Positions 18,301 to 36,032 of a stretch of 64,000 nucleotides of DNA are shown here, piece after piece. This DNA is from Candidatus Thorarchaeota archaeon (GTDB lineage Archaea; Asgardarchaeota; Thorarchaeia; Thorarchaeales; Thorarchaeaceae), in contig DXJO01000006.1 in assembly GCA_019057475.1 (NCBI GenBank), positions 32,001 through 96,000 of the forward strand, in the 5' to 3' direction. The number at the start of each line of letters is the position of its first letter. Positions within the stretch are counted from its first letter, which is position 1. Below the pieces are notes generated by a model. It searched no databases and was not told the origin of the DNA. It worked only from the letters and a program-made list of their open reading frames with translations. The translations under genes and the position numbers were made by a program.

Positions 18301-18686
18301 CAGTAGACAGCTTTCGTGACGGTGTATTTCTAGCGGGAGCTTGTCTTGGTCCAATGGACATCCCCAAGGCTGTGGCCTATGGAAAGGCTGCTGCTGCAGG
18401 TGCTCAGTCCTTGATGGCGCCAGGCAAGTTTCAGGTTGAACCCATTTATGCAGAGATTGACACGACGCTATGCAACGACTGTGATCTCTGTAACGATCTA
18501 TGTCCGTACAGTGCCATAACTGGCGAGGGTGACGAACGGAAAGTCATGTACGAAATCTGTCAGGGATGCGGGACATGTGCTGCTGCCTGTCCACAGATGG
18601 CGATTGACATGCGGCACTATAGATCAGAACAGCTAATGCCGCAGATTGCAGCTGCGGCGCGCATTCATGGAGGGATGAAGAAATGA
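15315..18686 (+). CDS. hdrA: Full-length HdrA with inserted GltD-like NAD(P)H-binding flavoprotein module (HdrL-type)
   Basis: IGVFVCHCG N-domain, GAGVAG FAD site, FPQNDCAICIL, ferredoxin interrupted by CRFSCPAH/GRVC/GAGPAG/GGGNAAVD/YRRS module, QCVGSR, C-terminal ferredoxin. Confidence 0.88.
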   Translation: MSTEEPRIGVFVCHCGLNIAGVVECKKVADFAATLPDVAYSVDLLFACSDDGQEHIKEAIHEHNLNRVIVASCTPRTHEPVFRQCLEEAGLNPYLYDQVNLREHVSWVHMDEKEKATQKALELVAMSVERAKRLEPLERQIVDVIPKCAVIGAGVAGISAALDLADAGFETYLIEKRPTIGGQMALLDKVFPQNDCAICILGPIMSRVGRHPRITLLPYSELETVNGHVGNFRLTVRKKTRYIHPDICNGCTDCEQVCPVSTPNSYEFWLTDRKAVYRPFPQAVPSSYTIDKKGIPACRFSCPAHVNCQGFSTLIKEKRFSEALDIVRNAIPFAGVLGRVCTSPCEAKCERGAFDESLSIRNLHRFLADYEREHGATKVEKIKKDKKEKIAVVGAGPAGIACAYDLAKLGYPVTVFEAREESGGLLRWGIPEYRLPRDVLREEISRVEGLGVKILTGKPVKSIASLRNRGFKAVFLATGAPVSTKLGVEGEDAKGVFHALDFLNQVNSGESVDLGKKVAIIGGGNAAVDSARVAKRLGARTVTLIYRRSRVEMPAIPSEIEEAEKEGVNLMLLATPIGFIMSDGVLESIRCIKMRLGEPDASGRRRPIPIPESEFEVRVDNVIIAVGQMVSPTSILKGLEVTQWDTLSVDPITLQTSLKGVFAGGDVVSGPTTVVEAVAAGIEAAKSIDRYVRGVDLSEGRPEILRLVPSAEVDKTRAEIAERAVMPTINAKLRKSNFAEVETGLALKTAVAEAERCFNCALCSECNLCIEVCKPNAIDHSLVDEFVELDVGTIILATGFKPYDPSETREFGYGAFKNVITNAQLERLTNAAGPTHGKVKRPSDGMPPKSVAFVQCVGSRDRRVNQDYCCYTGCENSLKQATQIKEKYPNTEISIFAMDIRTHGLGYEGLYRRAREMGVIIIKGRPSEIEEIPGTRSLKVLAEDLYTGERLGTTYELVVLASALLPNDDTKDLARKLNISTGEYGYLMEAHPKLRPVDSFRDGVFLAGACLGPMDIPKAVAYGKAAAAGAQSLMAPGKFQVEPIYAEIDTTLCNDCDLCNDLCPYSAITGEGDERKVMYEICQGCGTCAAACPQMAIDMRHYRSEQLMPQIAAAARIHGGMKK

Positions 18687-19111
18687 GTGGCAAGAGGTTC
18701 GAACCTAGTATCGTGGCGTTCACGTGCAACTGGTGCTCTTATGGCGGTGCAGACCTTGCGGGAATTTCACGTATCCAATACCCCCCCAATTCGAAGGTGA
18801 TTAGGCTCATGTGTTCAGGCAGAGTTGACCCGCTGATGACGCTTGAGGCGTTCAAGAATGGAGCTGACGGTGTAATCATTAGTGGCTGCCACATTGGTGA
18901 CTGTCACTACTCCACAGGCAACTACCGAACAGAGGTTCGATTCATGGCACTCCGATCAGCGATGGATGTTATTGGATTAAATCCAGAACGGTTGCGTCTT
19001 CTTTGGGCGAGTGCCTCAGAAGGACAGCAGTGGGCGGATACAATGCGAGAGATGGCTGAGCAAGTTAGAGAGCTTGGACCTAGTCCACTCAAAGGAGGTA
19101 GCAAGAAGTGA
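18683..19111 (+). CDS. mvhD: MvhD [2Fe-2S] hydrogenase delta subunit
   Basis: FTCNWCSYGGADLAG, MCSGRVDP, GCHIGDCHY, WASASEG. Confidence 0.93.
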   Translation: MSGKRFEPSIVAFTCNWCSYGGADLAGISRIQYPPNSKVIRLMCSGRVDPLMTLEAFKNGADGVIISGCHIGDCHYSTGNYRTEVRFMALRSAMDVIGLNPERLRLLWASASEGQQWADTMREMAEQVRELGPSPLKGGSKK

Positions 19112-20448
19112 CTGTTGCAGGGGAAAAGATAGTTGTCGAGGATAGGAAATCTACTGATACTGCCTTAGTAATCGGTGGCGGTGTTTCTGGCATGCAAGCT
19201 GCTCTCGACATTGCCGACCAAGGCTACTCTGTGGTGCTAGTCGAAAGAACACCATCCATTGGTGGGGTCATGGCCATGCTGGATAAGACATTCCCCACAC
19301 TTGATTGTTCGGCATGCATCCTTACGCCCAAGCTGTCTGAGGTTGCTCGGCACCCGAACATCGAGCTCATGACCTACTCTGAAGTCAAGAGCATCACCGG
19401 AACTGCAGGCAACTTTAGAGTCAGCGTTCTTCGGAAAGCACGTAAGGTCCTCGAAGACAAGTGTTCCGGATGTGGGGATTGTGTTCCACACTGCCCAATA
19501 GAAGTGCGAAATGAGTTTGACCAAGGCCTGGGCTACCGCAAGGCGGTGTACATTGGGTTCCCACAGAACACACCCCTCGTCTATACTATTGATTCTGAGA
19601 ACTGTATCAAATGTGGTATGTGTGTCAAGTCATGTGAACGAGAGGCCATCGACCTTGACTTGGAGGATGAGGAGATTGAGATATCCGTTGGTGCCATCGT
19701 GGTGGCAACCGGATATGAGCTCTACAACGTAGCCAATTACAGGCGCTTTGGCTATGGTCGTTTCAAGAATGTGATAAACGCACTCGAGTTCGAGCGCCTC
19801 ATCAATGCCGCTGGACCAACGGCTGGGAATCTCATGAGGCTTAGCGATGGGAAGATTCCAAAGAGCATTGGGTTCATCCAATGTGTTGGGGCACGCGACG
19901 CGACGAAGGACGTACCATATTGCTCGCGAGTATGTTGCATGTACGGTATCAAGAATGCGGTCATGGCCAAAGAGCTCCAACACGAGAACGTGAAGAAGGT
20001 GACCATATACTCGATCGACATTCGAGCGTTCGGCAAGGGTTTTGAGGAATTCTACAACATGGCCAAGGATCGATTTGGCATTAAGTTCATCCGAGGAAGA
20101 GTAGGAGAGGTGTCGGAGAACTCACGGAACAAGAACATCATTGTGCGTGCCGAAGACACGACAACAGGGAAGTTCTTGGAGCAGGAACACGAACTAGTAG
20201 TGCTCTGCCCCGGAATCCTGCCTCCCAAAGGTCTGCGGGATACTGCGAATCAGCTGGGGCTCCAGCTTGACTCAGATGGCTTCATTCACGTGGAACAACC
20301 AGCGAGCAACCCTGTGGACACGGCGGTTTCTGGAGTCTACATATGCGGATGTGTTGAGGGTCCGAAAGACATTCCAGACTCCGTAGCAGCAGGAAGCGCG
20401 GCCGCGATGCGCGCAAGCATCACGTTATGGAGGGAAGGTGAGCACTAA
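19108..20448 (+). CDS. hdrA: HdrA-family subunit lacking N-terminal domain and C-terminal ferredoxin
   Basis: GGGVSG, FPTLDCSACIL, inserted 2x[4Fe-4S], QCVGAR..YCSRVCC, GPKDIPDSV. Confidence 0.85.
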   Translation: MTVAGEKIVVEDRKSTDTALVIGGGVSGMQAALDIADQGYSVVLVERTPSIGGVMAMLDKTFPTLDCSACILTPKLSEVARHPNIELMTYSEVKSITGTAGNFRVSVLRKARKVLEDKCSGCGDCVPHCPIEVRNEFDQGLGYRKAVYIGFPQNTPLVYTIDSENCIKCGMCVKSCEREAIDLDLEDEEIEISVGAIVVATGYELYNVANYRRFGYGRFKNVINALEFERLINAAGPTAGNLMRLSDGKIPKSIGFIQCVGARDATKDVPYCSRVCCMYGIKNAVMAKELQHENVKKVTIYSIDIRAFGKGFEEFYNMAKDRFGIKFIRGRVGEVSENSRNKNIIVRAEDTTTGKFLEQEHELVVLCPGILPPKGLRDTANQLGLQLDSDGFIHVEQPASNPVDTAVSGVYICGCVEGPKDIPDSVAAGSAAAMRASITLWREGEH

Positions 20449-22196
20449 TGGCTACAGAGGAAGTTCCAAGGATTGGCGTATTCGTATGTCATTGTGGACA
20501 TAACATTGCTGGGACTGTAGATGTTGAGCGCGTGGCGGAGATTGCCGCCCACTACCCGAATGTTGAGTTCGCTACACATTTCATGTTCATGTGCAGTGAC
20601 TCCGGACAACAGCTGATTCGCGACAAGATCGAGGAGTTTAGTCTAAATAGGGTCGTAGTTGCCAGTTGCTCTCCCCGGATGCACGAGCCAACGTTTCGAA
20701 GGGTGGTCGAAGAGGCTGATGTCAACAGATACTGCTTCGAACAGGTGAACCTGAGAGAGCACGTGTCTTGGTGCCATATGAGGGAGCCTGAGGCAGCTAC
20801 CGAGAAAGCGATAGATCTTATTCGGATGTCTGTTGCTAGGGCCGCCCTTCTCGTGCCACTCGAGGTTAAGACTGTGAGTGTAGAACCACATACTCTGGTC
20901 GTTGGCGGCGGGGTTGCTGGATTGAGGGCGGCAATCGACATTGACAGCCGCGGCTTCAAGGTCACTCTCGTGGAACGAGAGCCTGAACTCGGTGGGAATC
21001 TAGCAAAGCTCTCTACTCTCTATCAGGGCAATGAGAAAGCCAGTGATGTCATCGAACGTATGGTACTGGCGGCCCGAATTAGCGAGAACCTGACCATAAT
21101 GACTGATTCGGAAGTGGTTGACGTCGAAGGCTATATTGGCAATTTTGATGTGACTGTCAAGAACAATGCCACCGACAAGACAGAGAAGCTCCGGGTTGGA
21201 GCTATAATAGTTGCTACAGGCTTTCAGTCATGGGTGCCTGAAGGAATCCCTCCGTACGGAATGAGTCTGGATGTCATCACGTTGGCCCAGCTAGAGGAGA
21301 TGAAGCGGGATGACAAGTTATTATGTCCAAGTACCGGCAAGCCTCCCAAGAAGGTCATGTTTATCGGATGTGTTGGTTCTCGTCAACCGGGAGTGCAAGG
21401 GCATGAACACTGTTCCAGGTACTGTTGTACTGCCATGGTGAAGGCAGCTGCTGACATAACTGAGATTACTGACGAAGTTCTGATACTCTATGATGATATC
21501 CGTACATTCGGGAAGGGCCACGAGGAGGTCCACCGTTCTGCCCACGAGAAGTTTGTAATGTTCTCCAAGTTTGATCGCACCAAGCCTGCCAAGACAACAG
21601 TAGCTGACGGTGCTTTGAGTGTGAAATGGAGAGATATCTTGGCTGGCGATAATCTTGAGTTCCATCCGGACCTCTTGGTATTGGTTACAGCTATGATTCC
21701 CCCGGAAGGTGTAGAGAAAGTGTCCCAGCTGTTCAGCCTCACACGCTCGGCAGATGGCTTCTTCAATGAGGAACACATCAAGCTGGCTCCTTTAACTACT
21801 CACACCGCAGGTGTGATGATTGCAGGAGCTGCCCAATCTGCAAAGGATTCTACTGACAGCACTACGCAAGCGAGCGGAGCTGCCGCGAAAGCGGCTTCAT
21901 TGATGGCCCGGGGAGAAGTGGAGATTGAATCCACCGTTGCTCATGTGCTAGAAGAGCTGTGTTCCAGCTGTCACACATGCGCCACTGCTTGTCCATACGG
22001 TGCTATCTCCTTTGACACCTCAAAGAAACCGGAGATAGCCGTGGTGACAGAGGCAGAATGTCACGGATGTGGGACCTGCGCAGCAGGGTGTCCAAGCAGT
22101 GCCATTATTATGCGGCATTCGACTGATGAACAAATCACTGCAATGGTTGAAGCGTTTCTCATGCCTCCACCAGTGATGGGGGGTGGTGATTCATGA
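20448..22196 (+). CDS. hdrA: HdrA-family subunit lacking inserted ferredoxin and DCxxC motif
   Basis: IGVFVCHCG, ASCSPRMHE, GGGVAG, GCVGSR..HCSRYCC, C-terminal CSSCHTC/CHGCGTC. Confidence 0.85.
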   Translation: MATEEVPRIGVFVCHCGHNIAGTVDVERVAEIAAHYPNVEFATHFMFMCSDSGQQLIRDKIEEFSLNRVVVASCSPRMHEPTFRRVVEEADVNRYCFEQVNLREHVSWCHMREPEAATEKAIDLIRMSVARAALLVPLEVKTVSVEPHTLVVGGGVAGLRAAIDIDSRGFKVTLVEREPELGGNLAKLSTLYQGNEKASDVIERMVLAARISENLTIMTDSEVVDVEGYIGNFDVTVKNNATDKTEKLRVGAIIVATGFQSWVPEGIPPYGMSLDVITLAQLEEMKRDDKLLCPSTGKPPKKVMFIGCVGSRQPGVQGHEHCSRYCCTAMVKAAADITEITDEVLILYDDIRTFGKGHEEVHRSAHEKFVMFSKFDRTKPAKTTVADGALSVKWRDILAGDNLEFHPDLLVLVTAMIPPEGVEKVSQLFSLTRSADGFFNEEHIKLAPLTTHTAGVMIAGAAQSAKDSTDSTTQASGAAAKAASLMARGEVEIESTVAHVLEELCSSCHTCATACPYGAISFDTSKKPEIAVVTEAECHGCGTCAAGCPSSAIIMRHSTDEQITAMVEAFLMPPPVMGGGDS

Positions 22197-22627
22197 CTGC
22201 CACTGTCACAATTTCTAAAGAGTGGATACCTAGGATTGCAGCCTTTTGCTGCAACTGGTGTTCCTACGCAGGTGCTGACCTAGCTGGCACAAGCAGAATC
22301 CAGTACCCCTCTGCTGTGCGAATAATCAGGGTAAATTGCACTGGTAGGGTCGACCCCGAATTCGTACTAAACGCCCTTGACAAGGGTGCGGATGGAGTAC
22401 TCGTGTCAGGCTGTCATCCAGGGGACTGCCATTACACAAGCGGCAATCTCAAGATGCGGGCACGATGGACGCTACTTCAGATGGCCGTTGAGCAAGCCGG
22501 AATCAACCCCGATAGGATTCGTCTACAGTGGGCCAGCGCTTCAGAGGGACAGAAGTTCGCTGATGGGGTTAGAGAACTCACGGAGAAGGTCAAGAATTTG
22601 GGTCCGTTTAGGAGGGGTTGGCAATGA
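22193..22627 (+). CDS. mvhD: MvhD [2Fe-2S] subunit
   Basis: FCCNWCSYAGADLAG, GCHPGDCHY, WASASEG. Confidence 0.93.
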   Translation: MTATVTISKEWIPRIAAFCCNWCSYAGADLAGTSRIQYPSAVRIIRVNCTGRVDPEFVLNALDKGADGVLVSGCHPGDCHYTSGNLKMRARWTLLQMAVEQAGINPDRIRLQWASASEGQKFADGVRELTEKVKNLGPFRRGWQ

Positions 22628-22971
22628 AAGAGAAATCTACACAGGATAGGATTGAAGCAGCCATTGACGCCTTCGGAAGCGAGCGATTAAGATGGCTTAT
22701 AGGCAAAGGAGACGTTCTAACCCAACGAAACGAGCTGACCGAAGAGAAACTCAAGGAGCTCGTCGACAAAACAGTCCGCGAAGAGATTGACCGGAGTACC
22801 ATTGCCAGGCGGCTTAGAGAGTCGCCTTCAACGATATCAGAGATATCGAAGGCAACGAAGCTGGAAACGGACTACATATTGGAAAATCTCCTCGCCATGA
22901 TGAAGTGGAACCGCGTTGAGATAGTCGATGAGAAGCAGAGAGAATATGTCTATGCTCTGAAGGAGATCTGA
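22624..22971 (+). CDS. Winged-HTH-like small protein coupled to mvhD
   Basis: LRESPSTISEISKATKLETDYILENLLAM HTH-like segment; ATGA overlap with mvhD. Confidence 0.6.
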   Translation: MKEKSTQDRIEAAIDAFGSERLRWLIGKGDVLTQRNELTEEKLKELVDKTVREEIDRSTIARRLRESPSTISEISKATKLETDYILENLLAMMKWNRVEIVDEKQREYVYALKEI

Positions 22972-22973
22972 AC

Positions 22974-23897
22974 GTGACTGAACCAGTTCCTATCGCAATG
23001 GCCCAAGGTAGCTCCTGTTGGGGTTGTTACCAGAGCCTCATTGACATTCACCTTAATCTGGCAACTGTCCTCCCCCTGTTGGACATCAAGTACTGGACGT
23101 GTGTGGCCGACTTCAAGCTCAAGGATTTGGAGGGCTATCCTGACAAATCGATCACGGTCGGCCTGTACGAGGGAATGGCCCGAACAGAGGAGGACATTCA
23201 TCTGCTAAAGCTCATAAGAGCGAAGTGCAAGATACTGATTGCATTTGGCTCATGTTCATGCTTTGGCGGCATTCCTGGAATGGCTAACTTCTCAACGATA
23301 GAGGAGTGCAACGAGGTCAAGTTCCGAAACAACAAGACCGTTAAGGATGGTGAGCTGCCAACAGAGAACCTCCCAGCGATTGCTCCCGTTGTGATACCCA
23401 ACCGAGACATAGTTGACTTTGAAATCTTTTTGCCGGGGTGCCCGCCAACCTCTAGCTTGATTCTCACTGCATTGACTGCTCTGCTTGAAGGCAAACCGAT
23501 TGAGCTACCACCACACACGGTGTGTCACTATTGCGATCGCGAGAAGAAAGAAACCCCGATAGAGAAGATACTGAGACCCTACGAAGGCATAGCAGACCCC
23601 GACCGGTGCCTTCTCGAACAGGGGTATATCTGCCTTGGCTCTGCAACTTGGGGTCTCTGTGAAGGACAGTGTGTCAGCCATGGCGTGACTTGCCGGGGCT
23701 GTTTTGGACCGCCTCCGCCAATCATGGGCGACCAAGGGGCGGCGGCAATATCCATGCTTGGCTCATATGCACCTCTTGAATCGGAAGTCCTTGCTGACAC
23801 GGTCCATGACCCACTTGGTTGCTTCTGGAGGTTCACCTACCCAACAAGCCACCTGGGTGCCATTCGAATAAAGCGAGAGGAGGCAAAGACGAAATGA
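22974..23897 (+). CDS. vhuG: F420-non-reducing [NiFe] hydrogenase small subunit (MvhG/VhuG)
   Basis: SCWGC, FGSCSCFGGIPG, LPGCPP, CHYCDR, CLLEQGYICLG, CRGCFGP. Confidence 0.9.
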   Translation: MTEPVPIAMAQGSSCWGCYQSLIDIHLNLATVLPLLDIKYWTCVADFKLKDLEGYPDKSITVGLYEGMARTEEDIHLLKLIRAKCKILIAFGSCSCFGGIPGMANFSTIEECNEVKFRNNKTVKDGELPTENLPAIAPVVIPNRDIVDFEIFLPGCPPTSSLILTALTALLEGKPIELPPHTVCHYCDREKKETPIEKILRPYEGIADPDRCLLEQGYICLGSATWGLCEGQCVSHGVTCRGCFGPPPPIMGDQGAAAISMLGSYAPLESEVLADTVHDPLGCFWRFTYPTSHLGAIRIKREEAKTK

Positions 23898-25210
23898 CCA
23901 ACGAGAAGATAATCCGCATTGACCCAGTGACACGCCTTGAAGGTCATGGATCGTTGACTATCAAGCTGGGTCCTGGCAACAAGGTCAAGGATGTCCAGTT
24001 CAACGTTAACAGTACACGATTCTTTGAGAAGTTTCTCGAAGGGCGACCAATGGAAGAGGCTCCACGAATCGCTCCGCGGATCTGCGGAATCTGCCCTATC
24101 CCGCATCATCTTGCATCACTGAAAGCCGTGGAGGCCGCCTGGGATGTGACACCTCCACCTGCAGCAATCAAGCTTAGGCGGCTATTGATTGAGGCGAAGC
24201 AGCTCTCATCTCACGCAATTCACTTCTACGCTCTTGCGGCTCCTGATTTTGTCTTTGGACCCTTCGCGAGCCCGGCTGTACGGAACGTTGCTGCTGTTCT
24301 CAAGTATCTCCCTGATGTTGCAGTCCAAGCGATCAAGCTCATGGAGTTCGGTCAGGAACTGTGCGCGACTATTGGGGCCAAGGCAATCCACCCAACAACG
24401 GGCATTCCTGGTGGGATGCTGTACGCTATGAAAGAAGAAGAGCGCGATGATTGGCTCAAGAAGGTCCCTGAGATGCTGGAGAACATCCATAAGACAGTGG
24501 ACCTTGCCAAGACCGTTGTCAACTCATACATCGAGGTGATAACGAAGCTCGCAGTCACTCCAACGTACTACGTTGGTCTGACCAATGATGGAGCTTTTGA
24601 CATCTATGATGGCAAGATTCGCGTGATGGATCCAGATGGCAAGATTGTGAAAGAATTCATGCCTCACGAGTACACAAAGTACTACGGCGAGCACGTTCCT
24701 AAGCACTCCTATGCGACTCACATCTACTACAAACCAGCCGGCTACCCCGAGGGTATTTGGCGAGCGAATACTCTTGCACGATGCAACGTTAACGATAGGA
24801 TGGCCACACCTCTTGCAGACGCGGCCCTGAAGGAGATGAGAGAACTCGTTGGGAGACCCTCGCATCACACGTTTGTATACCACTACGCTCGAATCGTAGA
24901 GATGGTTCAAGCTGCTGAGATGATCAAGACGCTCCTTGAGGATCCCGAGATTGTAAGCACGGACGTGAAGCTTTCTGACGTTGAACCCAAGGCTGGCGAC
25001 GGCGTTGGTGTTGTCGAGGCTCCGCGAGGCATTCTGCTCCACAACTACGAGTCTGATGACAAGGGCATGCTGGTCAAGGCGAATCTCATTGTCGCCACGA
25101 ACAACAATATTGCCGGCATCGAGAAATCATTGATGGTGGCCGCGAAACAAATCTTCGAAGACAAAGTGCTCGAGAAGATTACACTTCCTGAACCCATGGT
25201 GAAAACTTAG
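23894..25210 (+). CDS. vhuA: Group 3c hydrogenase large subunit lacking the C-terminal L2 motif (VhuA)
   Basis: DPVTRLEGH, RICGICP (L1), VEAPRG, LIVAT; ends at TAG without DPCxSCxxH; ATGA overlap with vhuG. Confidence 0.9.
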   Translation: MTNEKIIRIDPVTRLEGHGSLTIKLGPGNKVKDVQFNVNSTRFFEKFLEGRPMEEAPRIAPRICGICPIPHHLASLKAVEAAWDVTPPPAAIKLRRLLIEAKQLSSHAIHFYALAAPDFVFGPFASPAVRNVAAVLKYLPDVAVQAIKLMEFGQELCATIGAKAIHPTTGIPGGMLYAMKEEERDDWLKKVPEMLENIHKTVDLAKTVVNSYIEVITKLAVTPTYYVGLTNDGAFDIYDGKIRVMDPDGKIVKEFMPHEYTKYYGEHVPKHSYATHIYYKPAGYPEGIWRANTLARCNVNDRMATPLADAALKEMRELVGRPSHHTFVYHYARIVEMVQAAEMIKTLLEDPEIVSTDVKLSDVEPKAGDGVGVVEAPRGILLHNYESDDKGMLVKANLIVATNNNIAGIEKSLMVAAKQIFEDKVLEKITLPEPMVKT

Positions 25211-25228
25211 ACAAAAGAATTGATGATC

Positions 25229-25381
25229 ATGACAGAAGAAATACCTGAAGGCGTACTGAACATCATCGAGATGGTTGTTCGGTGCTACGACTGCTGACTA
25301 TCCTGCGGCGCTCATCTCGTCATTATCGACGAAGAGGGCCGCGAACTAGTCAGGAAGGAGCTTCAGACCGGCGGCGGATGA
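25229..25381 (+). CDS. vhuU: Selenocysteine-containing hydrogenase peptide VhuU (TGA=Sec at 25295-25297)
   Basis: MTEEIPEGVLNIIEMVVRCYDC-TGA-LSCGAHLVIIDEEGRELVRKELQTGGG*; supplies the L2 motif missing from vhuA; near-identical second copy. Confidence 0.9.
25305..25342 (+). promoter_or_regulatory. Coding-region stem-loop 7 nt 3' of the Sec UGA (SRE-like)
   Basis: GCGGC/GCCGC, CTC/GAG, TCGTC/GACGA stems with 6-nt loop; stems identical in copy 2. Confidence 0.6.
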
Positions 25382-25419
25382 AGACCCAGAAAAAAGATTG
25401 AAAACTGAGTCTGACCTGC
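25374..25419 (+). ncRNA. Eukaryote-like SECIS element of vhuU copy 1
   Basis: GCGG-ATGA-AGACCCAG-(A-rich loop)-CTGAGTCT-GA-C-CTGC; ATGA core includes the vhuU stop codon. Confidence 0.7.
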
Positions 25420-25727
25420 TCCAGCAGGGGCGGAGTCGGTCTGGCTCCTTCAAACACCAGTCTTGTATGCTCGAACTCCTACACTCCAAAGAAGACAATG
25501 AATGATTTCGGACATTGAATTGTTATTTCGAATCCAGATTCAAAATTCAGAAACATCTTCCTGATTGTCTGTAATCATGCATGAAATCATTGATTGCGTT
25601 TCGTTTCAAATGATGAATCTCGTTTCCGTGACCGAAACCTAACTCAATAGTATTATAATCTCGTTGAGAGGACTCCTCGCTGGCCTCTGGCATGATTGCT
25701 CGCAGAACGGAACGGTGAATTGAGCCA

Positions 25728-28472
25728 ATGACGATTGACCACACATCGAAGAAAAGTACATCCAAACTGGACGTTGTATCTAGCGAAGCCCTGGTTATTG
25801 GGGGTGGCGTAGCTGGCATGCAGGCGGCTCTGGATATGGCTAACCAGGGTTTCAAGGTTCATCTGCTAGAGAAGACTCCTTCTCTCGGCGGAAAAATGGC
25901 GATGATAGACAAGACCTTCCCAACATTGGATTGCTCGGCATGTATTCTCACGCCGCGTCTCAGCGAGGTATCGCGTCATCCAAACATCGAACTACATACG
26001 TATTCTGACGTAATTAGCGTTGCTGGAAGAGTTGGCGATTTCAAAGTAAAGATACGCAAGCGGGCGCGATATGTGGATGAGGACAAGTGCTCGGCATGTG
26101 CGGACTGTGTCCCGGCTTGTCCAGTGGAGGTTCCTAATGAATTCGATCAGAGTCTTGGTTTCCGTAAGGCAATCTATCAACCGTTCCCACAGGCGACACC
26201 GAGCACCTACACCATTACCAAGCTTGGCACACCAGCATGCAGAGAAGCGTGTCCCGCAGACGTGAATCCTCAAGGCTTCATCTCCCTCATGAAGGAAGGG
26301 AGGTTTCATGATGCTCTTAGAATATTCAGGAAGTCCAATCCGTTCCCAGGTGTACTTGGCCGAGTGTGCATAGCCTTCTGCGAGGGCGAGTGTGTTCGAG
26401 GAGAGCTAGATGAGAGTGTAAGCATCAGGAATCTCCACAGGTTCTTGGCTGACTACGAGAGAAAACATGGACCTGATAGGCCAATTGAAGCGAAGATTGA
26501 CAAGGATGAAAGAATCGCCGTGGTCGGCGCAGGTCCCGCGGGTCTGGCATGTGGGTATCATCTTGTCAAGATGGGCTACCCCGTAACCGTATTCGAGGCT
26601 CAACCTGAAGCAGGAGGACTCCTCCGCTATGGCATTCCGGAATACAGACTTCCTCGTGACATACTGGCCGAAGAGATCGACTGGATTGCCAAGCATGGCG
26701 TAAAAATAAAGACAAGCTCTCCAGTCGAGTCAATCAAGAGCCTGAAAAAGGAGGGCTTCAAGGCGATATTCTTGGCTACAGGAGCCTCAAATAGTAACAA
26801 ACTTGGGATTGCAGGAGAGGAGGCAAAGGGCATCTACCATGCCAGTGATTTCTTGGAACGAGCCAACTCAGGGAAACCATATCCGTTGGGCGAAAAGGTT
26901 GCTGTGATTGGCGGTGGGGACGCGGCAATTGACTCCGCGAGAGTTGCCATTAGACTCGGTGCGAAGGAAGTCACGATAGTTTATCGCAGGTCACATGTCG
27001 AGTTGCCTGCCATCCCCAGCGAAGTCGAAGATGCACGAGAGGAAGGCCTTAATCTGCTACTACTGACTAATCCTATCGAAATCCTCACATCAAAGGATGA
27101 GCTGAGGGGCATCAGATGTATAAAGATGAAACTGGGTGAACCAGATCACTCGGGTCGTCGACGGCCCCAAGTCATTCGGGGTTCGGAATTCACGCTGATT
27201 GTAGACAACATGATTATTGCTGTGGGACAGAGCGTGACACCAAAGGGCCTACACGAGGAATGTGATTGTTCGGAATGGGGAACAATCAAAGTGAATCCCC
27301 TAACTCTGGAAACTAACATGGAAGGAGTCTTTGCTGGCGGTGACGTTGTTCTCGGTCCAGCCACCGCAGTTAAAGCCGTGGCCCATGGCAAGGAGGCTGC
27401 AATCTCAATAGATCGATTTCTGAGAAAGGTCAATGTTGAAGCGGATAGAATTGAAGAACGACACCGAGTGAGAGTTGAAGAGGTTGACATGGAAAAACCT
27501 ACTGAGCCTCGCGTAGACATGCCCAAACACGGTGTAGCGGGAAGAATTCAATCTTACACTGAGGTTGAACTTGGGTTTGAACAAGAATCTGCTACACAGG
27601 AGGCTGAACGATGCCTAGGCTGTGCAATCTGTTGCGAATGTGAGCTGTGTGTTGAAGCTTGCACGCGTGAAGCAATCGATCACAAGATGCAGGATGAGAT
27701 AATAGAGCTTCCAGTAGGTGCGATAGTATTGGCCGCAGGATACAGGCTTTACGATGTTAGTGATTACCCCAGGCTCGGATACGGAAAGTTCCCTAATGTC
27801 ATCCACGCGATGGAGTACGAGCGACTGATCAACGCATCAGGCCCAACCCACGGACATCTGATAAAGCTCAGTGACGGGAAGCTACCCAAGAGCATCGGTT
27901 TCATCCAATGTGTCGGTGCCCGAGATGTCAACCGCGGCGTTCCTGAGTGTTCACGAGTGTGTTGCATGTATGGTATCAAAAACGCAGTCATGGCAAAGGA
28001 ACATGACCCTGAGATTGACGTGACCATCTACTACGCTGACATCCGTGCCTTTGGCAAGGGCTTCGAGGAATTCTACAACATGGCTAAGGATCGATTTGGT
28101 ATCAAGTTCATTCGAGGCAGAGTTGGAGAGGTCATGGAGGACCGCGAAACAGGCAATCTCACTGTGAGAGTTGAGAACACCGATGAACATGCCATTCAGG
28201 ACATTGAACATGATCTTGTAGTAATCAGCCCCGGTATTCAACCCCCCTGGGGTCTTGATGTCATCGCCAGTGAGCTCGGACTAGAACTAGATGAGACAGG
28301 CTATGTGCCAGTGAAGGACGAGCTACTTGCGCCTGTGGACACTACTATTCCTGGTGTCTTTGCGTGTGGATGCGTCGATAGTCCCAAGGACATTCCAGAC
28401 TCGGTGACTGCGGGTAGCGCTGCCGCCATGAGGGCGACAATAATACTATCGCAGGCTGAGAAAAAGGAGTAA
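25728..28472 (+). CDS. hdrA: HdrA-family subunit with GltD-like insertion, lacking N-terminal domain and C-terminal ferredoxin
   Basis: GGGVAG, FPTLDCSACIL, CREACPAD/GRVC/GAGPAG/GGGDAAID module, QCVGAR..CSRVCC; GGTGA RBS. Confidence 0.85.
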   Translation: MTIDHTSKKSTSKLDVVSSEALVIGGGVAGMQAALDMANQGFKVHLLEKTPSLGGKMAMIDKTFPTLDCSACILTPRLSEVSRHPNIELHTYSDVISVAGRVGDFKVKIRKRARYVDEDKCSACADCVPACPVEVPNEFDQSLGFRKAIYQPFPQATPSTYTITKLGTPACREACPADVNPQGFISLMKEGRFHDALRIFRKSNPFPGVLGRVCIAFCEGECVRGELDESVSIRNLHRFLADYERKHGPDRPIEAKIDKDERIAVVGAGPAGLACGYHLVKMGYPVTVFEAQPEAGGLLRYGIPEYRLPRDILAEEIDWIAKHGVKIKTSSPVESIKSLKKEGFKAIFLATGASNSNKLGIAGEEAKGIYHASDFLERANSGKPYPLGEKVAVIGGGDAAIDSARVAIRLGAKEVTIVYRRSHVELPAIPSEVEDAREEGLNLLLLTNPIEILTSKDELRGIRCIKMKLGEPDHSGRRRPQVIRGSEFTLIVDNMIIAVGQSVTPKGLHEECDCSEWGTIKVNPLTLETNMEGVFAGGDVVLGPATAVKAVAHGKEAAISIDRFLRKVNVEADRIEERHRVRVEEVDMEKPTEPRVDMPKHGVAGRIQSYTEVELGFEQESATQEAERCLGCAICCECELCVEACTREAIDHKMQDEIIELPVGAIVLAAGYRLYDVSDYPRLGYGKFPNVIHAMEYERLINASGPTHGHLIKLSDGKLPKSIGFIQCVGARDVNRGVPECSRVCCMYGIKNAVMAKEHDPEIDVTIYYADIRAFGKGFEEFYNMAKDRFGIKFIRGRVGEVMEDRETGNLTVRVENTDEHAIQDIEHDLVVISPGIQPPWGLDVIASELGLELDETGYVPVKDELLAPVDTTIPGVFACGCVDSPKDIPDSVTAGSAAAMRATIILSQAEKKE

Positions 28473-28508
28473 TTCTGCTGGTGCATTATGAAGGACAGGT
28501 GATATGAG

Positions 28509-29009
28509 ATGAACAATGAAACACACACACCCTCCTCAGATTTCGCAAAAGAGATTGCCTTAATCCCGGGAGGGGAAGTCATCAACAAGTGTATCCAGTG
28601 TGGCATATGTACTGCCAGTTGTGTTGTGGCCTGTGTAGACGACCAATACCGGCCTCGGCGGCTGATTCAGAAGATTCTGATAGGCAAGAGAGATGAGGTG
28701 CTGAAGAGCGATCAACCTTGGCTATGCATGACGTGCAGAATGTGTGAAGAGCGATGCCAGGAGGGCGTAAGTCCCGCAGAGATATTCCACGCTGTACGAA
28801 TCCTCGCAGTCAAAGAGGGTCACATTCCCAAGGTGTTTCAGATTACTGTCGAAAAGGTACTCTGCGATGGTTGGATGTTAGCAGATGCATATACCGATTT
28901 CAACGAAGATGAGCGAGAGGATCTCGGCCTAAATCCTGCCCTCGCTTGGAATGACACTTTTACGAAGAAGGTGAAGAAGAAGTACCTCGCTGGGGAGGAG
29001 AGCGCATGA
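28509..29009 (+). CDS. hdrC: Heterodisulfide reductase subunit C
   Basis: CIQCGICTASC, WLCMTCRMCEERC; close paralog of 12375..12866. Confidence 0.9.
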   Translation: MNNETHTPSSDFAKEIALIPGGEVINKCIQCGICTASCVVACVDDQYRPRRLIQKILIGKRDEVLKSDQPWLCMTCRMCEERCQEGVSPAEIFHAVRILAVKEGHIPKVFQITVEKVLCDGWMLADAYTDFNEDEREDLGLNPALAWNDTFTKKVKKKYLAGEESA

Positions 29010-29884
29010 AAGAGATAATGCTGTACAGAGGGTGCACTACTCCTGTGAGGCTCCCGGCATACGAGGCAGCCACAATAGCTGTGCTGGGGAAGCTCGGAGT
29101 GAAGGTTGTTGAGATGGATGATGCAAACTGCTGCGGAGCCCAATATGTCGAGTCCGTAAGCAGAATGGCATTTGCAGCAATGAGCGGAAGAATCCTCGCA
29201 CTGGCTGAGAAAGAGAGCCAAGACATCTTGGCGTTGTGTGGCGCTTGTTCAGGTTCCCTGAAGATAAACAAGCATTTTCTGGACAACGACGAGAAGGCCC
29301 GTAAGGAGGTTAACGAACTCCTGTCAGAAGAGGGGTTGAAATATACCGGCAAGACTAGAGTTCGACACCTGCTCCAAGTCTTGAACGAGGATATCGGTTT
29401 CGAAGCAATTGAGAAAGCCATAAAGAAACCCTACAAAGGCTTGAAATTGGCCGCACATTATGGTTGTCACGTAACTCGGCCCTATGAGATTGTTCAAGTC
29501 GATGACCCTGAAAATCCCACAATCATTGACCGTCTTATTGAGATTGCGGGGGCAGAGGCTGTGGACTATGTGGGCAAGACCAGGTGCTGCGGTGGGCCTC
29601 TCCTGGCAATGGATGAGAGTCTTGCGACTCACATTGGCCAAGACAAGATAAGAGATGCCATCGCCGCCGGCGCACAAGGCATGGTCACCGCATGCGTGTT
29701 CTGTGATATCCAGTTGACACAAGTCCAGTTCGGTGAAGATACAGATTCGAGCAAGATGATTCCCGTCATTCCTATTGTGCAGTTTCTCGGTCCAGCCCTC
29801 GGCATCAAGGAGGATGTGCTGGGCATTGAGTTGAACAAGACCAGTCCCGATATCATCTTGTCAGCATTACAGGAGGCGAAATAA
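29006..29884 (+). CDS. hdrB: Heterodisulfide reductase subunit B
   Basis: Two CCG domains; close paralog of 12866..13753. Confidence 0.9.
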   Translation: MKEIMLYRGCTTPVRLPAYEAATIAVLGKLGVKVVEMDDANCCGAQYVESVSRMAFAAMSGRILALAEKESQDILALCGACSGSLKINKHFLDNDEKARKEVNELLSEEGLKYTGKTRVRHLLQVLNEDIGFEAIEKAIKKPYKGLKLAAHYGCHVTRPYEIVQVDDPENPTIIDRLIEIAGAEAVDYVGKTRCCGGPLLAMDESLATHIGQDKIRDAIAAGAQGMVTACVFCDIQLTQVQFGEDTDSSKMIPVIPIVQFLGPALGIKEDVLGIELNKTSPDIILSALQEAK

Positions 29885-31629
29885 TGACTGAAGCAGAAAC
29901 ACCAAGGATTGGCGTTTTCATCTGTCACTGTGGTCACAATATCGCGGGAGTCGTGGATGTGGTAAGAGTCGCTAAGATGGCTGAGTCTCTGCCGCATGTC
30001 GTCTTCTCGACGGATGACATGTTCATGTGTGCTGATGCTGGTCAACAACTAATCAAGGACATGGTGGAGGAGCATAGTCTGAATCGCGTCGTAGTCGCTA
30101 GCTGCTCACCCAGAATGCACGAACCTACATTTCGTAGAGTCGTCGAAGAGGCTGGCCTCAATCGTTATCTCTTCGAGCAGACCAATCTTCGAGAGCATGT
30201 ATCTTGGTGTCACATGAGAGAGCCCGAAGCGGCCACTGAGAAGGCAATGGATCTGGTACGGATGTCTGTTGCGCGAGCGGCCAAGCTTGAGAATCTGCCA
30301 GTGAAGAGCGTTAAAGTCACCCCTCGCACTTTAGTCGTTGGCGGAGGAATCACTGGCCTTCGAGCTGCACTCGATATTGCTAACCGTGGTTTTGATGTCG
30401 TTCTGGTGGACAAGGAACCAAAACTCGGCGGACATGTTGCGAAGTGGACTCACATGTTTACAGGCGACAGGTCAGGATCTGAGGTTGTTGGCCCCTTGGT
30501 CAAAGAAGTGAAAGCGCACAGTCGTATTGAAATTCTGACGAATAGCAGTGTGATCGAGTTTGATGGCTACATTGGCAACTTCGAGGCCACCATAGAGAAC
30601 AGGAAGGACAAGGCTCGCAGTAAATTTGACATTGGCACGGTGATTGTGGCAATTGGTTTTGACGCCTTCAAGCCCCACGGATACTACGGCTACGGAGAGA
30701 GTCCAGATATAGTCACTCTGGCTGAGCTACAAGAGATGCCTCCGAGAGATCGTCTGCTTAAGCCTAGCGACGGAAAGCCTGCAAGCAAGATTGCATTTAT
30801 TGGATGTGTAGGATCGCGTGAGCCTGGCAAGAGGGGTCATGAACATTGTTCCAGGCATTGTTGTCCTGCCGTGGCTAAAGCTGCTTCTGATCTTAAAGAC
30901 AGGCTCGACGAAGTGCTAATCCTTTACAAAAGCATCCGAACGTATGGCAGAGGCCATGAAGAACTGCATCGATTGGCCCGGTCAAAACACGTCATCTACT
31001 CTCGGTTCCCGGACGGAGAAGACCCGGTTATCGAAGTAGTGGACGGAAAAGTCAAGATGAGATGGACTGATATTTACGCAGATGAGGAACTGCAATTTGA
31101 GCCCGACATCCTTGTCTTGGCGTCCGCGATGGTTGCCCGATCGGACATTGACGAAACCACGAAGCTCTTTGGTCTAACTAGGAGTAGAGACGGATTCTTT
31201 AATCCGGAGCATATCAAGCTCGCTCCGCTTACCACACACACTGCAGGCGTTATGATTGCAGGCGCTGCGCAGGCGCCAAAGAATGCGTCTGAGTCAGTTG
31301 TCGATGCCAGTGGCGCAGCAGCAAAGGCCGTCGGAATCATGGCGCGAGGCGAGGTTGAGATTGAATCAACTGTATCTCGTGTCATTTCGGAATTGTGTTC
31401 TTCATGTCACACTTGCGTTACAGCGTGTCCATACGGCGCAATTGAAATGGACGAGTCGAAGGACCCGCCCATCGCCTTCGTGACTGAAGCGAAATGTCAC
31501 GGTTGCGGCACATGTGCCGCAGCTTGTCCGAGCAGTGCTATCATAATGTTGCACTCGACTGACGACCAAATCATGACGATGGTGCAAGCTTACCTCTGCG
31601 CACCACCCGACACAATAGGAGGTACATAG
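29884..31629 (+). CDS. hdrA: HdrA-family subunit lacking inserted ferredoxin and DCxxC motif
   Basis: IGVFICHCG, GGGITG, GCVGSR..HCSRHCC, C-terminal ferredoxin; paralog of 20448..22196. Confidence 0.85.
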   Translation: MTEAETPRIGVFICHCGHNIAGVVDVVRVAKMAESLPHVVFSTDDMFMCADAGQQLIKDMVEEHSLNRVVVASCSPRMHEPTFRRVVEEAGLNRYLFEQTNLREHVSWCHMREPEAATEKAMDLVRMSVARAAKLENLPVKSVKVTPRTLVVGGGITGLRAALDIANRGFDVVLVDKEPKLGGHVAKWTHMFTGDRSGSEVVGPLVKEVKAHSRIEILTNSSVIEFDGYIGNFEATIENRKDKARSKFDIGTVIVAIGFDAFKPHGYYGYGESPDIVTLAELQEMPPRDRLLKPSDGKPASKIAFIGCVGSREPGKRGHEHCSRHCCPAVAKAASDLKDRLDEVLILYKSIRTYGRGHEELHRLARSKHVIYSRFPDGEDPVIEVVDGKVKMRWTDIYADEELQFEPDILVLASAMVARSDIDETTKLFGLTRSRDGFFNPEHIKLAPLTTHTAGVMIAGAAQAPKNASESVVDASGAAAKAVGIMARGEVEIESTVSRVISELCSSCHTCVTACPYGAIEMDESKDPPIAFVTEAKCHGCGTCAAACPSSAIIMLHSTDDQIMTMVQAYLCAPPDTIGGT

Positions 31630-31631
31630 CA

Positions 31632-32078
31632 ATGACGACGAAAACAGCAGCCAAGATTGACAACACTGAGAGTTGGGAACCGAGAATCGTAGCGTTCTGC
31701 TGCAACTGGTGTTCCTATGCTGGAGCTGACCTAGCTGGCACTAGCAGAATCCAGTATCCCCCGAATGCCAGGATTCTACGAGTCAATTGTACCGGCCGGA
31801 TAAGTCTTGAGTTTATCTTGGCCGCTCTTGAGATGGGTGCAGACGGAGTTCTTGTGTCTGGATGCCACCCAGGTGACTGCCATTATACGAGCGGCAACCT
31901 TAAGCTCAGGGCGCGCTGGACTATCATGAAGAAGGCAATTGAGCAGGCCGGTGTTGACCCTCGCAGAGTCCGGCTCCAGTGGGCGAGTGCCTCTGAGGCA
32001 CAGATATTCGCTGACGGTGTCAGAACCTTGGTAAAGCAAGTGAAAGAACTGGGTCCTATCATGGAGGAATGGAAATGA
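31632..32078 (+). CDS. mvhD: MvhD [2Fe-2S] subunit
   Basis: FCCNWCSYAGADLAG, GCHPGDCHY. Confidence 0.93.
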   Translation: MTTKTAAKIDNTESWEPRIVAFCCNWCSYAGADLAGTSRIQYPPNARILRVNCTGRISLEFILAALEMGADGVLVSGCHPGDCHYTSGNLKLRARWTIMKKAIEQAGVDPRRVRLQWASASEAQIFADGVRTLVKQVKELGPIMEEWK

Positions 32079-32314
32079 GTGCAATCATCGCGCACTTCAA
32101 ACAGAAACGCGGGGATGTCCGCGCACAGCGCAAGGCGATAATGGAAGTGTTGTCCGAGGGTCCATCCAAGGTTTCAGTGATAGCTGAAAAAACTGAACTA
32201 TCCAAGGATAAGATCGTCTGGAACCTACTTGGCCTTCTCAGGTGGGGCACCGTAGAGATCATTGGGGAAGAAGAACATGAACTCATGTTCGCTGCAACGG
32301 AGGTCCAAGAATGA
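32075..32314 (+). CDS. Winged-HTH-like small protein
   Basis: LSEGPSKVSVIAEKTELSKDKIVWNLLGLLRWG; syntenic paralog of 22624..22971; overlaps both neighbours. Confidence 0.6.
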   Translation: MSAIIAHFKQKRGDVRAQRKAIMEVLSEGPSKVSVIAEKTELSKDKIVWNLLGLLRWGTVEIIGEEEHELMFAATEVQE

Positions 32315-33234
32315 CAGAACCCACATCAATCGCAATGGCCCAAGGCAGCTCCTGTTGGGGCTGTTTCCAGAGCCTCATCGACATTCACCTCAATCTTGCA
32401 ACTGTTTTGCCGCTGATTGACATCAAGTACTGGCAGTGTGTTGCTGACTTCAAGCTCAAGGACCTTGAGGGCTATCCAGACAAATCGATAACGGTTGGCC
32501 TGTACGAAGGGATGGCTCGAACAGAAGAGGACATTCATCTGCTAAAGCTTATGAGAGAGAAGTGCAAGATTCTGATTTCATTCGGCTCGTGTTCTTGCTT
32601 TGGCGGCATTCCGGGCCTAGCAAACTTTTCAACTCTAGAGGAGTGCCTAGAAGTTAAGTTCAGAAATAACAAGACAGTCAAGGATGGCGAGGTGCCGACA
32701 GAGAACCTTCCAACGATTGCTCCTGTTGTGGTACCTAACAGCACCATCGTTGACTTTGAAATTTTTCTTCCAGGATGCCCTCCGACATCCAAATTGATTC
32801 TAACGGCCTTGACTGCTCTGCTTGAAGGCAAACCGATTGAGCTACCGCCCCACACAGTGTGTCACTATTGCGACCGCGAGAAGAAAGAGACCCCGATAGA
32901 GAAGATACTGAGACCCTACGAGGGCATTGCAGACCCTGACAGGTGCCTGTTAGAACAGGGCTACATCTGCGTTGGTTCTGCAACGTGGGGCCTCTGCGAA
33001 GGGCAGTGTGTCAATCACGGCGCCACATGCCGTGGCTGTTTCGGTCCACCTCCGCCAATAACGAACGACCAAGGAGCGGCGGCAATATCCATGTTTGGCT
33101 CATACGCACCTCTTGAATCGGAAGTCCTTGCTGAAACGGTCCTTGACCCACTTGGCTGTTTCTGGAGGTTCACCTACCCAACAAGCCACCTTGGTGCTAT
33201 TCGAATCAAGCGAGAGGAGGCAAAGACGAAATGA
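32311..33234 (+). CDS. vhuG: Hydrogenase small subunit VhuG, copy 2
   Basis: Near-identical to 22974..23897, all Cys motifs present. Confidence 0.9.
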   Translation: MTEPTSIAMAQGSSCWGCFQSLIDIHLNLATVLPLIDIKYWQCVADFKLKDLEGYPDKSITVGLYEGMARTEEDIHLLKLMREKCKILISFGSCSCFGGIPGLANFSTLEECLEVKFRNNKTVKDGEVPTENLPTIAPVVVPNSTIVDFEIFLPGCPPTSKLILTALTALLEGKPIELPPHTVCHYCDREKKETPIEKILRPYEGIADPDRCLLEQGYICVGSATWGLCEGQCVNHGATCRGCFGPPPPITNDQGAAAISMFGSYAPLESEVLAETVLDPLGCFWRFTYPTSHLGAIRIKREEAKTK

Positions 33235-34547: not shown

Positions 34548-34565
34548 ACGAGAGAATTGATGATT

Positions 34566-34718
34566 ATGACAGACGAAATACCTGAAGGAGTACTGAACAT
34601 CATCGAAATGGTTGTTCGGTGCTACGACTGCTGACTATCCTGCGGCGCTCATCTCGTCATTGTCGACGAAGAGGGCCGCGAGATAGTTAGGAAGGAGCTC
34701 GTGACTGGCGGCGGATGA
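34566..34718 (+). CDS. vhuU: Selenocysteine-containing VhuU, copy 2 (TGA=Sec at 34632-34634)
   Basis: MTDEIPEGVLNIIEMVVRCYDC-TGA-LSCGAHLVIVDEEGREIVRKELVTGGG*; 4 aa differences from copy 1, frame conserved past the TGA. Confidence 0.9.
34642..34679 (+). promoter_or_regulatory. SRE-like stem-loop 3' of the Sec UGA, copy 2
   Basis: Same stems as 25305-25342; the only change is in the loop (ATTATC to ATTGTC). Confidence 0.6.
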
Positions 34719-34756
34719 AGGCTCGGTCGAAAACTAACGGACCGGGTTGGACAGCC
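34707..34756 (+). ncRNA. Eukaryote-like SECIS element of vhuU copy 2
   Basis: ATGA-A-GGCTCGGTC-GAAAACTAACG-GACCGGGTT-G-GA-C; 9-bp helix with G-U pairs, AAAA loop; ATGA includes the stop codon. Confidence 0.75.
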
Positions 34757-34762
34757 TCGCAA

Positions 34763-34800
34763 GGGCGCGCTAGTCGCGCTCCTTCTATCCCTTTATTTCT
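34763..34800 (+). terminator. GC hairpin plus pyrimidine tract ending hdr/vhu cluster 2
   Basis: GGCGCG-CTAGT-CGCGCT then CCTTCTATCCCTTTATTTCT. Confidence 0.45.
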
Positions 34801-34825
34801 ACAAGAAACGACGATTGTGGTGACC

Positions 34826-35281: not shown

Positions 35282-35361
35282 GCTCGAAAGACTTCGTATT
35301 TTCAAGAACCTAAGAAGAGGATATATGAGGCCAGGTCAGTCTTGAATCACGGGGAACGCAT

Positions 35362-35982: not shown

Positions 35983-36032
35983 AGAGGAAGGCAGGCCTTA
36001 CCTGCCATTCCTTAGATTTAAGATCTTGTTCG

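Follow-up and report, generated by a model that had tools for sequence, protein, structure and literature searches.

How does an archaeon complete a hydrogenase whose large subunit ends before the C-terminal nickel-ligand motif? The question arises twice in the stretch of DNA analysed here (hereafter the window), 64,000 nucleotides (nt) of a Candidatus Thorarchaeota archaeon (GCA_019057475.1, contig DXJO01000006.1, positions 32,001-96,000, forward strand). Two truncated large subunits, VhuA copy 1 (23894-25210) and VhuA copy 2 (33231-34547), are each followed on the same forward strand by a mini open reading frame (ORF), at 25229-25381 and 34566-34718, that is interrupted by an in-frame TGA. 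Very probably, the two mini-ORFs represent true vhuU genes that belong to a split group-3c hydrogenase, in which the UGA is read as selenocysteine (Sec). The anatomy of the sequence, the conservation of the TGA, the coding constraint past the UGA, the covariation within a Sec insertion sequence (SECIS) as well as the presence of the Sec machinery are direct observations. The core of this finding has been known as a published Asgard pattern since 2016, because the same design is described for Loki VhuU with a SECIS that embeds the stop codon (Mariotti et al. 2016, PMC4989117), for Asgard-wide FrhA/VhuU selenoproteins with type I eSECIS-like elements, including those of Thorarchaeia (Huang et al. 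2024, PMC11227280), and for the VhuU of Atabeyarchaeia published in 2024 (PMC11291895). What looks less described is a hairpin close to the UGA, a lower SECIS helix built from codons and the D-C-U motif; together with a SECIS of divergent form in one of the two copies, these points are of secondary interest.

Both VhuA proteins have 438 residues, counted in copy 1 from an ATG conserved with copy 2. They belong to the Pfam family NiFeSe_Hases, are 95.7% identical in amino acid sequence and represent the large subunit of a group-3c [NiFe] hydrogenase. They carry the N-terminal RICGICP ligand motif and finish with ...PEPMVKT. Both are without a C-terminal DPCxxCxxH, in line with an earlier sequence-only reading of this DNA, which had noted that the C-terminal Ni-ligand motif is missing. 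The gap from the vhuA stop to the vhuU start is 18 nt at both loci. Each mini-ORF is 50 sense codons long, and its codon 23 is a TGA (25295-25297 in copy 1 and 34632-34634 in copy 2); LSCGAH and 21 more residues follow, and the terminal stop is also a TGA. Both copies thus translate as M..EIPEGVLNIIEMVVRCYDC-U-LSCGAH plus 21 residues and differ at E3D before the TGA and at I33V, L40I and Q46V after it. The same reading had placed 50-codon ORFs with RCYDC-TGA-LSCGAH 18 nt downstream of each large subunit, counted three substitutions (I/V, L/I, Q/V) in the 27 codons past the TGA and divided the peptide into 29 and 21 residues, all of which agrees with our data. Under translation table 11, vhuU is a 22-codon ORF only. 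We also considered a fusion of VhuA to VhuU by read-through of the TAG between them, and rejected it: the genes are in frame here, but their frame relation is 0, 1 or 2 among orthologues.

The best PDB match of VhuA copy 2 is chain g of 9sfi (418 residues; E = 1e-134; query residues 7-421 against chain residues 4-417). Chain 9sfi_M, a peptide of 27 residues, can be aligned with VhuU residues 5-30, and the Sec of this chain (given as X) falls on the TGA codon (U23). The 9SFI structure is cited in a study of the Hdr-Vhu-Fwd complex of M. maripaludis, in which the hydrogenase is named VhuADGU (PMC13518236). Chains 7t2r_D, 5odc_F, 9sw2_F and 3zfs_A have Cys at the position of U23, where the fused MvhA / FrhA chains read DPC. 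Judging from this homology, U23 and C26 are predicted Ni ligands. The tail of VhuU is homologous to the C-terminus of the F420-reducing hydrogenase alpha precursor 3zfs_A (405 residues), and in-register extrapolation of the alignment places His29 on residue 386, at which the shorter deposit 4ci0_A ends. Because His29 maps to the last residue of this shorter deposit, cleavage after His29 can soundly be predicted, which would release a 21-residue propeptide and leave a mature peptide of 29 residues. A gene for a HycI-family endopeptidase is located at G000:C54:86565-86873.

The sequence-only reading had given the motif of methanococcal VhuU as DPUxSCxxH. Its U-x-x-C-x-x-H part is present here, while the D-P-U part is replaced by D-C-U, giving D-C-U-L-S-C-G-A-H. 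This Pro-to-Cys exchange is found in every Asgard orthologue compared, usually as R-C-Y-D-C-U; D-C-U is a variation of the VhuU motif and not a failure of homology. As pure speculation, the Asgard-wide Cys-Sec dyad, which stands where D-P-C/U is otherwise near-invariant, could be joined as a vicinal selenenylsulfide, and the Ni site might be protected or tuned by it. We found no discussion of the dyad in the published Asgard and VhuU work examined.

The TGA itself is kept among relatives. Among 40 relatives examined, 26 loci in 19 other genomes have the stand-alone ORF, and its TGA occupies the same codon, a recurrence far beyond chance. Of 52 species-genome loci, 40 have TGA at this codon, as have 16 of the 20 loci from metagenomes. 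Distant homologues (~40% identity) are fused, read DP-C and employ TGT or TGC, and Cys codons also occur in a few stand-alone paralogues. The comparison of TGA with Cys that the sequence-only reading had proposed therefore separates orthologues, which keep TGA, from distant or paralogous forms, which have Cys. Substitutions behind the TGA fall mainly at third codon positions: among 38 unique sequences, the minor-allele fraction at codon positions 1, 2 and 3 was 0.085, 0.05 and 0.262 after the TGA (0.066, 0.009 and 0.311 before it), and the two alternative frames after the TGA are closed in 38 of 38 and 34 of 38 sequences. This substitution pattern indicates that the tail of vhuU past the UGA is translated.

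The host genome (3.34 Mb, 96% complete) also contains all components of the Sec machinery that had been named as a check, namely tRNA-Sec, EFSec, SepSecS, PSTK and SelD. The tRNA-Sec scores 52 bits (Rfam cut-off 47) and has the anticodon TCA, and EFSec, SepSecS and PSTK cluster with it on contig C42. This island (G000:C42:58332-63369) holds EFSec, SepSecS, tRNA-Sec and, on the opposite strand, PSTK within 5 kb. SelD has an in-frame TGA of its own, which lies in the canonical HG-U-SCK site. Of 1,557 long ORFs, 580 (37%) terminate with TGA, and the codon has thus not been reassigned genome-wide. We looked for Sec in the neighbouring VhuD and HdrA, as in Loki, and found none: 12 of 12 FlpD matches are without stops, and the hdrA ORFs of the window are uninterrupted. 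These 12 FlpD-domain matches of the genome are all of the Cys type, and several are fused into proteins of 654-1,174 residues. With Sec on the homologous VhuU, a TGA kept in orthologues, the complete machinery and the SECIS described below, the proposal that UGA encodes Sec is supported.

In either copy, the terminal TGA and the A in front of it form an AUGA. Next come a stem, its A-rich loop, the returning strand and then GA. The copy 2 SECIS is canonical and spans 34701-34777 (forward strand), with helix I at 34701-34710/34768-34777, the AUGA including the stop at 34715-34718, a 9-bp upper stem at 34720-34728/34740-34748, the 11-nt loop GAAAACUAACG at 34729-34739, GA at 34750-34751 and a small hairpin at 34754-34757/34763-34766. 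The copy 1 SECIS is divergent and spans 25365-25442 (forward strand), with helix I at 25365-25372/25435-25442, the AUGA including the stop at 25378-25381, an 8-bp upper stem with one C.A mismatch at 25382-25389/25405-25412, a 15-nt A-rich loop at 25390-25404, GA at 25413-25414 and a second hairpin at 25415-25419/25424-25428. An AUGA containing the stop is also found in 17 of 19 relative loci checked, and all 40 species-genome and 15 metagenome Sec-type loci have an ATGA stop; the locus without it is L113, on metagenome contig Ga0209986_10005835. There, the frame of a 94%-identical vhuU runs past ...VTGG into 3' sequence, through an apparent frameshift at the stop/AUGA or possibly a sequencing error.

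We proposed three helices from inspection and the RNAalifold consensus and evaluated them in an alignment of 18 sequences. Pairing is possible in 91.4% of cells, compared with at most 44% when the partners are slid, and 12 pairs show compensatory change; none of 500 shuffles reached the observed values. The compensatory pairs include seven of nine in the upper stem and four of nine in the lower helix. In the lower helix, the last codons (...VTGGG) pair with sequence ~55 nt downstream and enclose the small hairpin, which may be the reason for the strongly conserved C-terminal GGG. A scan of both genome strands with the SECIS pattern returned 50 matches, among them both vhuU stops. Seven further candidates combined the pattern with a TGA-interrupted ORF; they lack a redox-type motif around the TGA, and we took them as spurious. 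The scan missed SelD, which has a bulged stem. In SelD (G000:C45, ~24400-25600, minus strand) the terminal UGA also lies in an AUGA; behind it come a stem of 7 bp that contains a bulged A, and GA. Both selenoprotein families of this genome, VhuU and SelD, hence embed their stop codon in the SECIS core.

The SECIS was found in every checked Sec-type locus of standard tail length and is absent from four of five stand-alone Cys forms: paralogues L112, L126, L131 and L132, the last three of them from metagenomes, have neither the AUGA stop nor the stem-loop. L112, from a Thorarchaeota relative (G018:C63:34318-34455), encodes a stand-alone RCYDC-C-LSCSAF in which the His of the cleavage site is replaced by Phe. 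The fifth form, L130 (metagenome contig SDBV01067372.1), has TGC at the Sec position, yet retains the AUGA stop, the second hairpin and a perfect SECIS-like stem-loop of 9 bp. Sec seems to have given way to Cys recently in this form, leaving a fossil SECIS.

Several points weigh against the Sec reading of the two vhuU genes. The Rfam SECIS covariance models gave no match at E <= 10 in 18000-37000; the 2016 Loki study likewise had no Rfam SECIS match (PMC4989117). Single-sequence folding of the 3' regions revealed no significant stability (z-scores of -0.7 to -1.2), and their minimum free energy (MFE) folds differ from the comparative SECIS model. PSTK scores 134 bits, below the curated cut-off of 290, yet it aligns over its full length and adjoins tRNA-Sec. 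A metatranscriptome contig of 389 nt, ~91% identical, spans 24988-25375 and thus vhuA, the junction and the TGA, which hints that vhuA and vhuU are co-transcribed; this contig derives from a relative, and the RNA library could contain DNA. In three RNA runs, 5-11% of the sampled words were found at 90-95% identity, and the reads therefore come from relatives; contigs of this kind cannot show transcript ends or levels. The copy 1 SECIS is atypical and was found in no other genome, so that copy 1 might work less efficiently or be in decay. Finally, we infer Sec insertion, the Ni-ligand roles, the cleavage and the physiological partners, the first three by homology.

What else could the TGA be? 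Were it a true stop, as table 11 has it by ending the ORF at codon 23, with no ORF listed at this place, the locus would either encode a 22-residue peptide or be what decay has left of a large subunit that was once fused, and the hydrogenase would be inactive. We regard this as exceedingly improbable and essentially refuted, as dozens of genomes conserve the TGA together with the 27 codons that follow, with substitutions patterned on third positions, the enzyme would miss two of its four metal ligands in all those genomes, and Sec machinery and SECIS are present. Hardly more credible is a read-through without Sec, either by near-cognate suppression with Cys or Trp or by a lineage-wide reassignment of TGA. 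Such a reading could draw on Cys working at this position in homologues and on the Cys stand-alone paralogues of relatives, but TGA ends more than a third of the long ORFs, a dedicated tRNA-Sec (TCA) comes with the full pathway, and the SECIS tracks the Sec-type loci and is missing from most stand-alone Cys forms. Decoding of the UGA as Sec is also compatible, for copy 2, with the idea that only this copy is fully functional and that copy 1 is a recent species-specific duplicate with a replaced 3' region and a weak or failing SECIS. The C.A mismatch in the 8-bp stem, a loop of 15 nt rather than ~11 and the lack of the terminal loop G speak for this idea, as do the same-genus relatives, each of which shows a single vhuU of the copy-2 type. 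The copy 1 version of the SECIS had no second instance among the relatives' genomes or metagenome contigs examined, and the 100 nt 3' of vhuU are only 56% identical between the copies, compared with 93% within the gene. On the other side, copy 1 keeps the AUGA/GA core, a loop rich in A, a helix I whose 8 bp are perfect, and both the second hairpin and the one within the coding sequence; the peptides differ at four residues only, and vhuA copy 1 is intact. Copy 2 has exactly the 9-bp stem and 11-nt A-rich, G-ending loop of lokiSECIS, while copy 1, with one mismatch in 8 bp and a 15-nt loop ending in A, lies outside this strict definition and fits the looser type I model of 2024 (7-15 bp stem, 8-20 nt loop; PMC11227280). 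We thus consider it rather unlikely that copy 2 alone is fully functional. Our confidence that copy 2 is functional is high and that for copy 1 somewhat lower, because of the stem mismatch, the 15-nt loop and a SECIS version found nowhere else.

Beyond the SECIS, both vhuU genes contain a hairpin in the coding sequence, at 25304-25343 in copy 1 and 34641-34680 in copy 2 (both forward strand). Its 14 pairs begin 7 nt past the Sec codon; the outer helix (25304-25309/25338-25343 in copy 1) is best supported, and RNAalifold keeps this outer helix only. Across 41 distinct orthologues, pairing is possible in 91.6% of cells, compared with at most 61% when slid, and four pairs are compensatory. A change from Gly27 to Ala (G to C at 25308) is accompanied by a synonymous G at 25339 in 8 of 12 Ala-type and 0 of 29 Gly-type sequences; as these sequences are related, the counts may reflect fewer independent events. 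A longer helix that pairs the UGA region 25294-25300 with 25347-25353 appears in the MFE folds of both copies and is broken in many orthologues; we dropped it on inspection, because Val-to-Ala changes on its 3' side are uncompensated.

We then compared the stability of the 51 nt after the UGA with synonymous recodings, in which the peptide is kept and codons are redrawn from the usage of this genome. The mean z-score was -3.4, with 40 of 41 sequences below -1.64 (copy 1, -2.6; copy 2, -3.7), while the 51 nt before the UGA, which served as a control, gave -0.1 to -0.3. Sixteen further Sec-type metagenome loci ranged from -2.0 to -4.1, all 16 being at or below -1.96. Excess stability is absent from 15 Cys-type homologues (one stand-alone form, from G018, and 14 large subunits of the fused type; z-scores of -1.5 to +2.1), and in L130 the hairpin is gone (z = +2.2). 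Thus, a stem-loop lies a few nt after the UGA and is kept beyond the needs of the protein sequence, and in this sense it is similar to the Sec redefinition element (SRE) of eukaryotes. The link to Sec forms is strong but not exclusive, because three of five stand-alone Cys forms still have z-scores near -2.

The hairpin might also be unrelated to Sec decoding and serve mRNA stability, pausing for the hand-over of the peptide to VhuA, or coupling. We give this a substantial chance, if somewhat below even. It would account for the excess stability in those three Cys forms, for SelD, the other selenoprotein gene of the genome, having no UGA-proximal hairpin (z = +0.7), and for an archaeal SECIS that acts from the 3' end. 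It accounts less well for an excess stability that is strongest and nearly universal in Sec forms and absent from the 15 other Cys-type homologues and from the Cys form with the fossil SECIS. A start 7 nt after the UGA moreover resembles the SRE, and eukaryotic SREs lie a few nt after the UGA. We found no earlier report of a UGA-proximal hairpin in the literature searched, which is not proof that none exists. The SRE is mentioned only as a eukaryotic feature in PMC4989117, the 2024 Asgard search looked no further than -30 to +600 nt around the 3' end (PMC11227280), and neither paper mentions the hairpin or a lower helix formed from the last codons. Our tentative proposal, which we would put at rather less than an even chance, is that Thorarchaeota vhuU mRNAs, like some selenoprotein mRNAs of eukaryotes, use two recoding elements. 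One would be the known eukaryote-like 3' SECIS, in which a lower helix made with the last five codons encloses an extra small hairpin, and the other an SRE-like hairpin not reported before and kept by selection at synonymous sites; the speculative Cys-Sec selenenylsulfide may be added to them.

In the mechanism we propose, VhuA would bring the N-terminal pair of metal ligands and the ~50-residue VhuU precursor the C-terminal pair, with Sec23 as terminal Ni ligand, by homology, and Cys26 as bridging ligand. The UGA would be decoded by tRNA-Sec brought by EFSec, directed by a eukaryote-like SECIS ~80 nt downstream, whose AUGA kink-turn core contains the gene's own UGA stop; this second UGA is presumably too near the SECIS for recoding. 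After metal insertion, a HycI-type endopeptidase would probably cut after His29, and the 29-residue mature peptide would stay bound to VhuA in an Hdr/Mvh-type electron-bifurcating complex.

At both loci, vhuA-vhuU forms the end of an operon with the gene order HdrA-like, MvhD, small ORF, MvhG, VhuA. The small subunits mvhG/vhuG (22974-23897, forward strand, and 32311-33234) match Pfam Oxidored_q6. The mvhD/vhuD genes (22193-22627, forward strand, and 31632-32078) match FlpD at full length, and copy 1 is of the Cys type without an in-frame stop. The window contains three copies of MvhD, at 18683-19111, 22193-22627 and 31632-32078. The small ORFs between mvhD and mvhG (22618-22971, 117 residues; 32069-32314, 81 residues) share 27% amino acid identity and have weak, sub-threshold winged-helix matches. 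Between the operons, nt identity is 86% for mvhG, 91% for vhuA and 93% for vhuU, and 64-67% for hdrA and mvhD (20448-22627 versus 29884-32078). This step in identity between the mvhG-vhuA-vhuU module (22974-25381 versus 32311-34718) and the adjacent genes suggests that the hydrogenase module was recently duplicated or gene-converted into two Hdr contexts. Contigs for both copies are present in the likely source DNA run, and the duplication is therefore not a binning artefact.

The closest relatives of the large subunit come from metagenome-assembled genomes (MAGs) of Candidatus Thorarchaeota (97% identity), and remoter ones from Helarchaeota, Hermodarchaeota and Atabeyarchaeia. The public runs that best match the host DNA are marine-sediment and cold-seep metagenomes. 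Seven truncated VhuA paralogues in other Asgard MAGs (L066, L080, L081, L083, L085, L086 and L094) have no vhuU in the 0.9-3 kb of downstream flank; most are ~68% identical (L066, 81%; L094, 60%). Thor AB_25 has one VhuA without and another with an adjoining vhuU. Such VhuA paralogues may draw on a common peptide whose gene lies in another place.

In the Hdr/Mvh-type bifurcating complexes that dominate the window, the split [NiFeSe] hydrogenase probably serves as the module for handling H2. Where vhuU is missed in annotation, the enzyme would wrongly be marked as defective in metabolic reconstructions of Asgard archaea. As the biology itself has been published, the value of our analysis lies in annotating these two genes correctly. 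The UGA-proximal hairpin is the only part that could add knowledge. If it does promote Sec decoding, the eukaryotic logic of SRE plus SECIS would be mirrored in those archaea that are most closely related to eukaryotes.

How does this system compare with known ones? The eukaryotic SRE (Howard et al. 2005/2007, cited in PMC4989117) is likewise a stable stem-loop in the coding sequence shortly after the Sec UGA, present in some selenoprotein mRNAs only and alongside a 3' SECIS; its likeness to the vhuU hairpin is positional only, and partial excess stability is here also seen in some Cys paralogues. Loki VhuU.1 and its lokiSECIS (PMC4989117) likewise combine a protein of ~50 residues, one Sec and an AUGA core that doubles as the UGA stop, and a second gene copy exists there too. 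The 9-bp stem and 11-nt A-rich loop of lokiSECIS recur in copy 2, whereas the stem and loop of copy 1 are atypical, and the 3' core is GA here and was reported as AA in Loki VhuU (PMC4989117). The loop start G[U/G]AAA of Thorarchaeia frhA genes (PMC11227280) is matched by copy 2. The fused MvhA / FrhA (5odc_F, 9sw2_F, 3zfs_A) belong to the same fold family, and their C-terminal R-x-Y-D-P-C-x-S-C-x-x-H with its cleavable tail aligns with VhuU residues 4-45, but they are one polypeptide with Cys in place of Sec. Closest in layout is VhuU of the Methanococcales (the F420-non-reducing [NiFeSe] hydrogenase of M. voltae and M. maripaludis; chain M of 9sfi/9t1s), likewise encoded as a stand-alone peptide directly after a truncated large subunit, with Sec where the ligand motif at the C-terminus has its first Cys, and with xxCxxH behind it. 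The split lies at an equivalent place, as VhuA reaches residue 417 of 418 in 9sfi_g, although the Thorarchaeota VhuA has ~17 extra C-terminal residues and its VhuU 4 extra N-terminal ones. Unlike the Methanococcales, the host is not a methanogen; its SECIS is of the Asgard eukaryote-like type and not the methanococcal type with a GAA_A bulge, and its VhuU reads R-C-Y-D-C-U where the methanococcal peptide reads R-A-Y-D-P-U.

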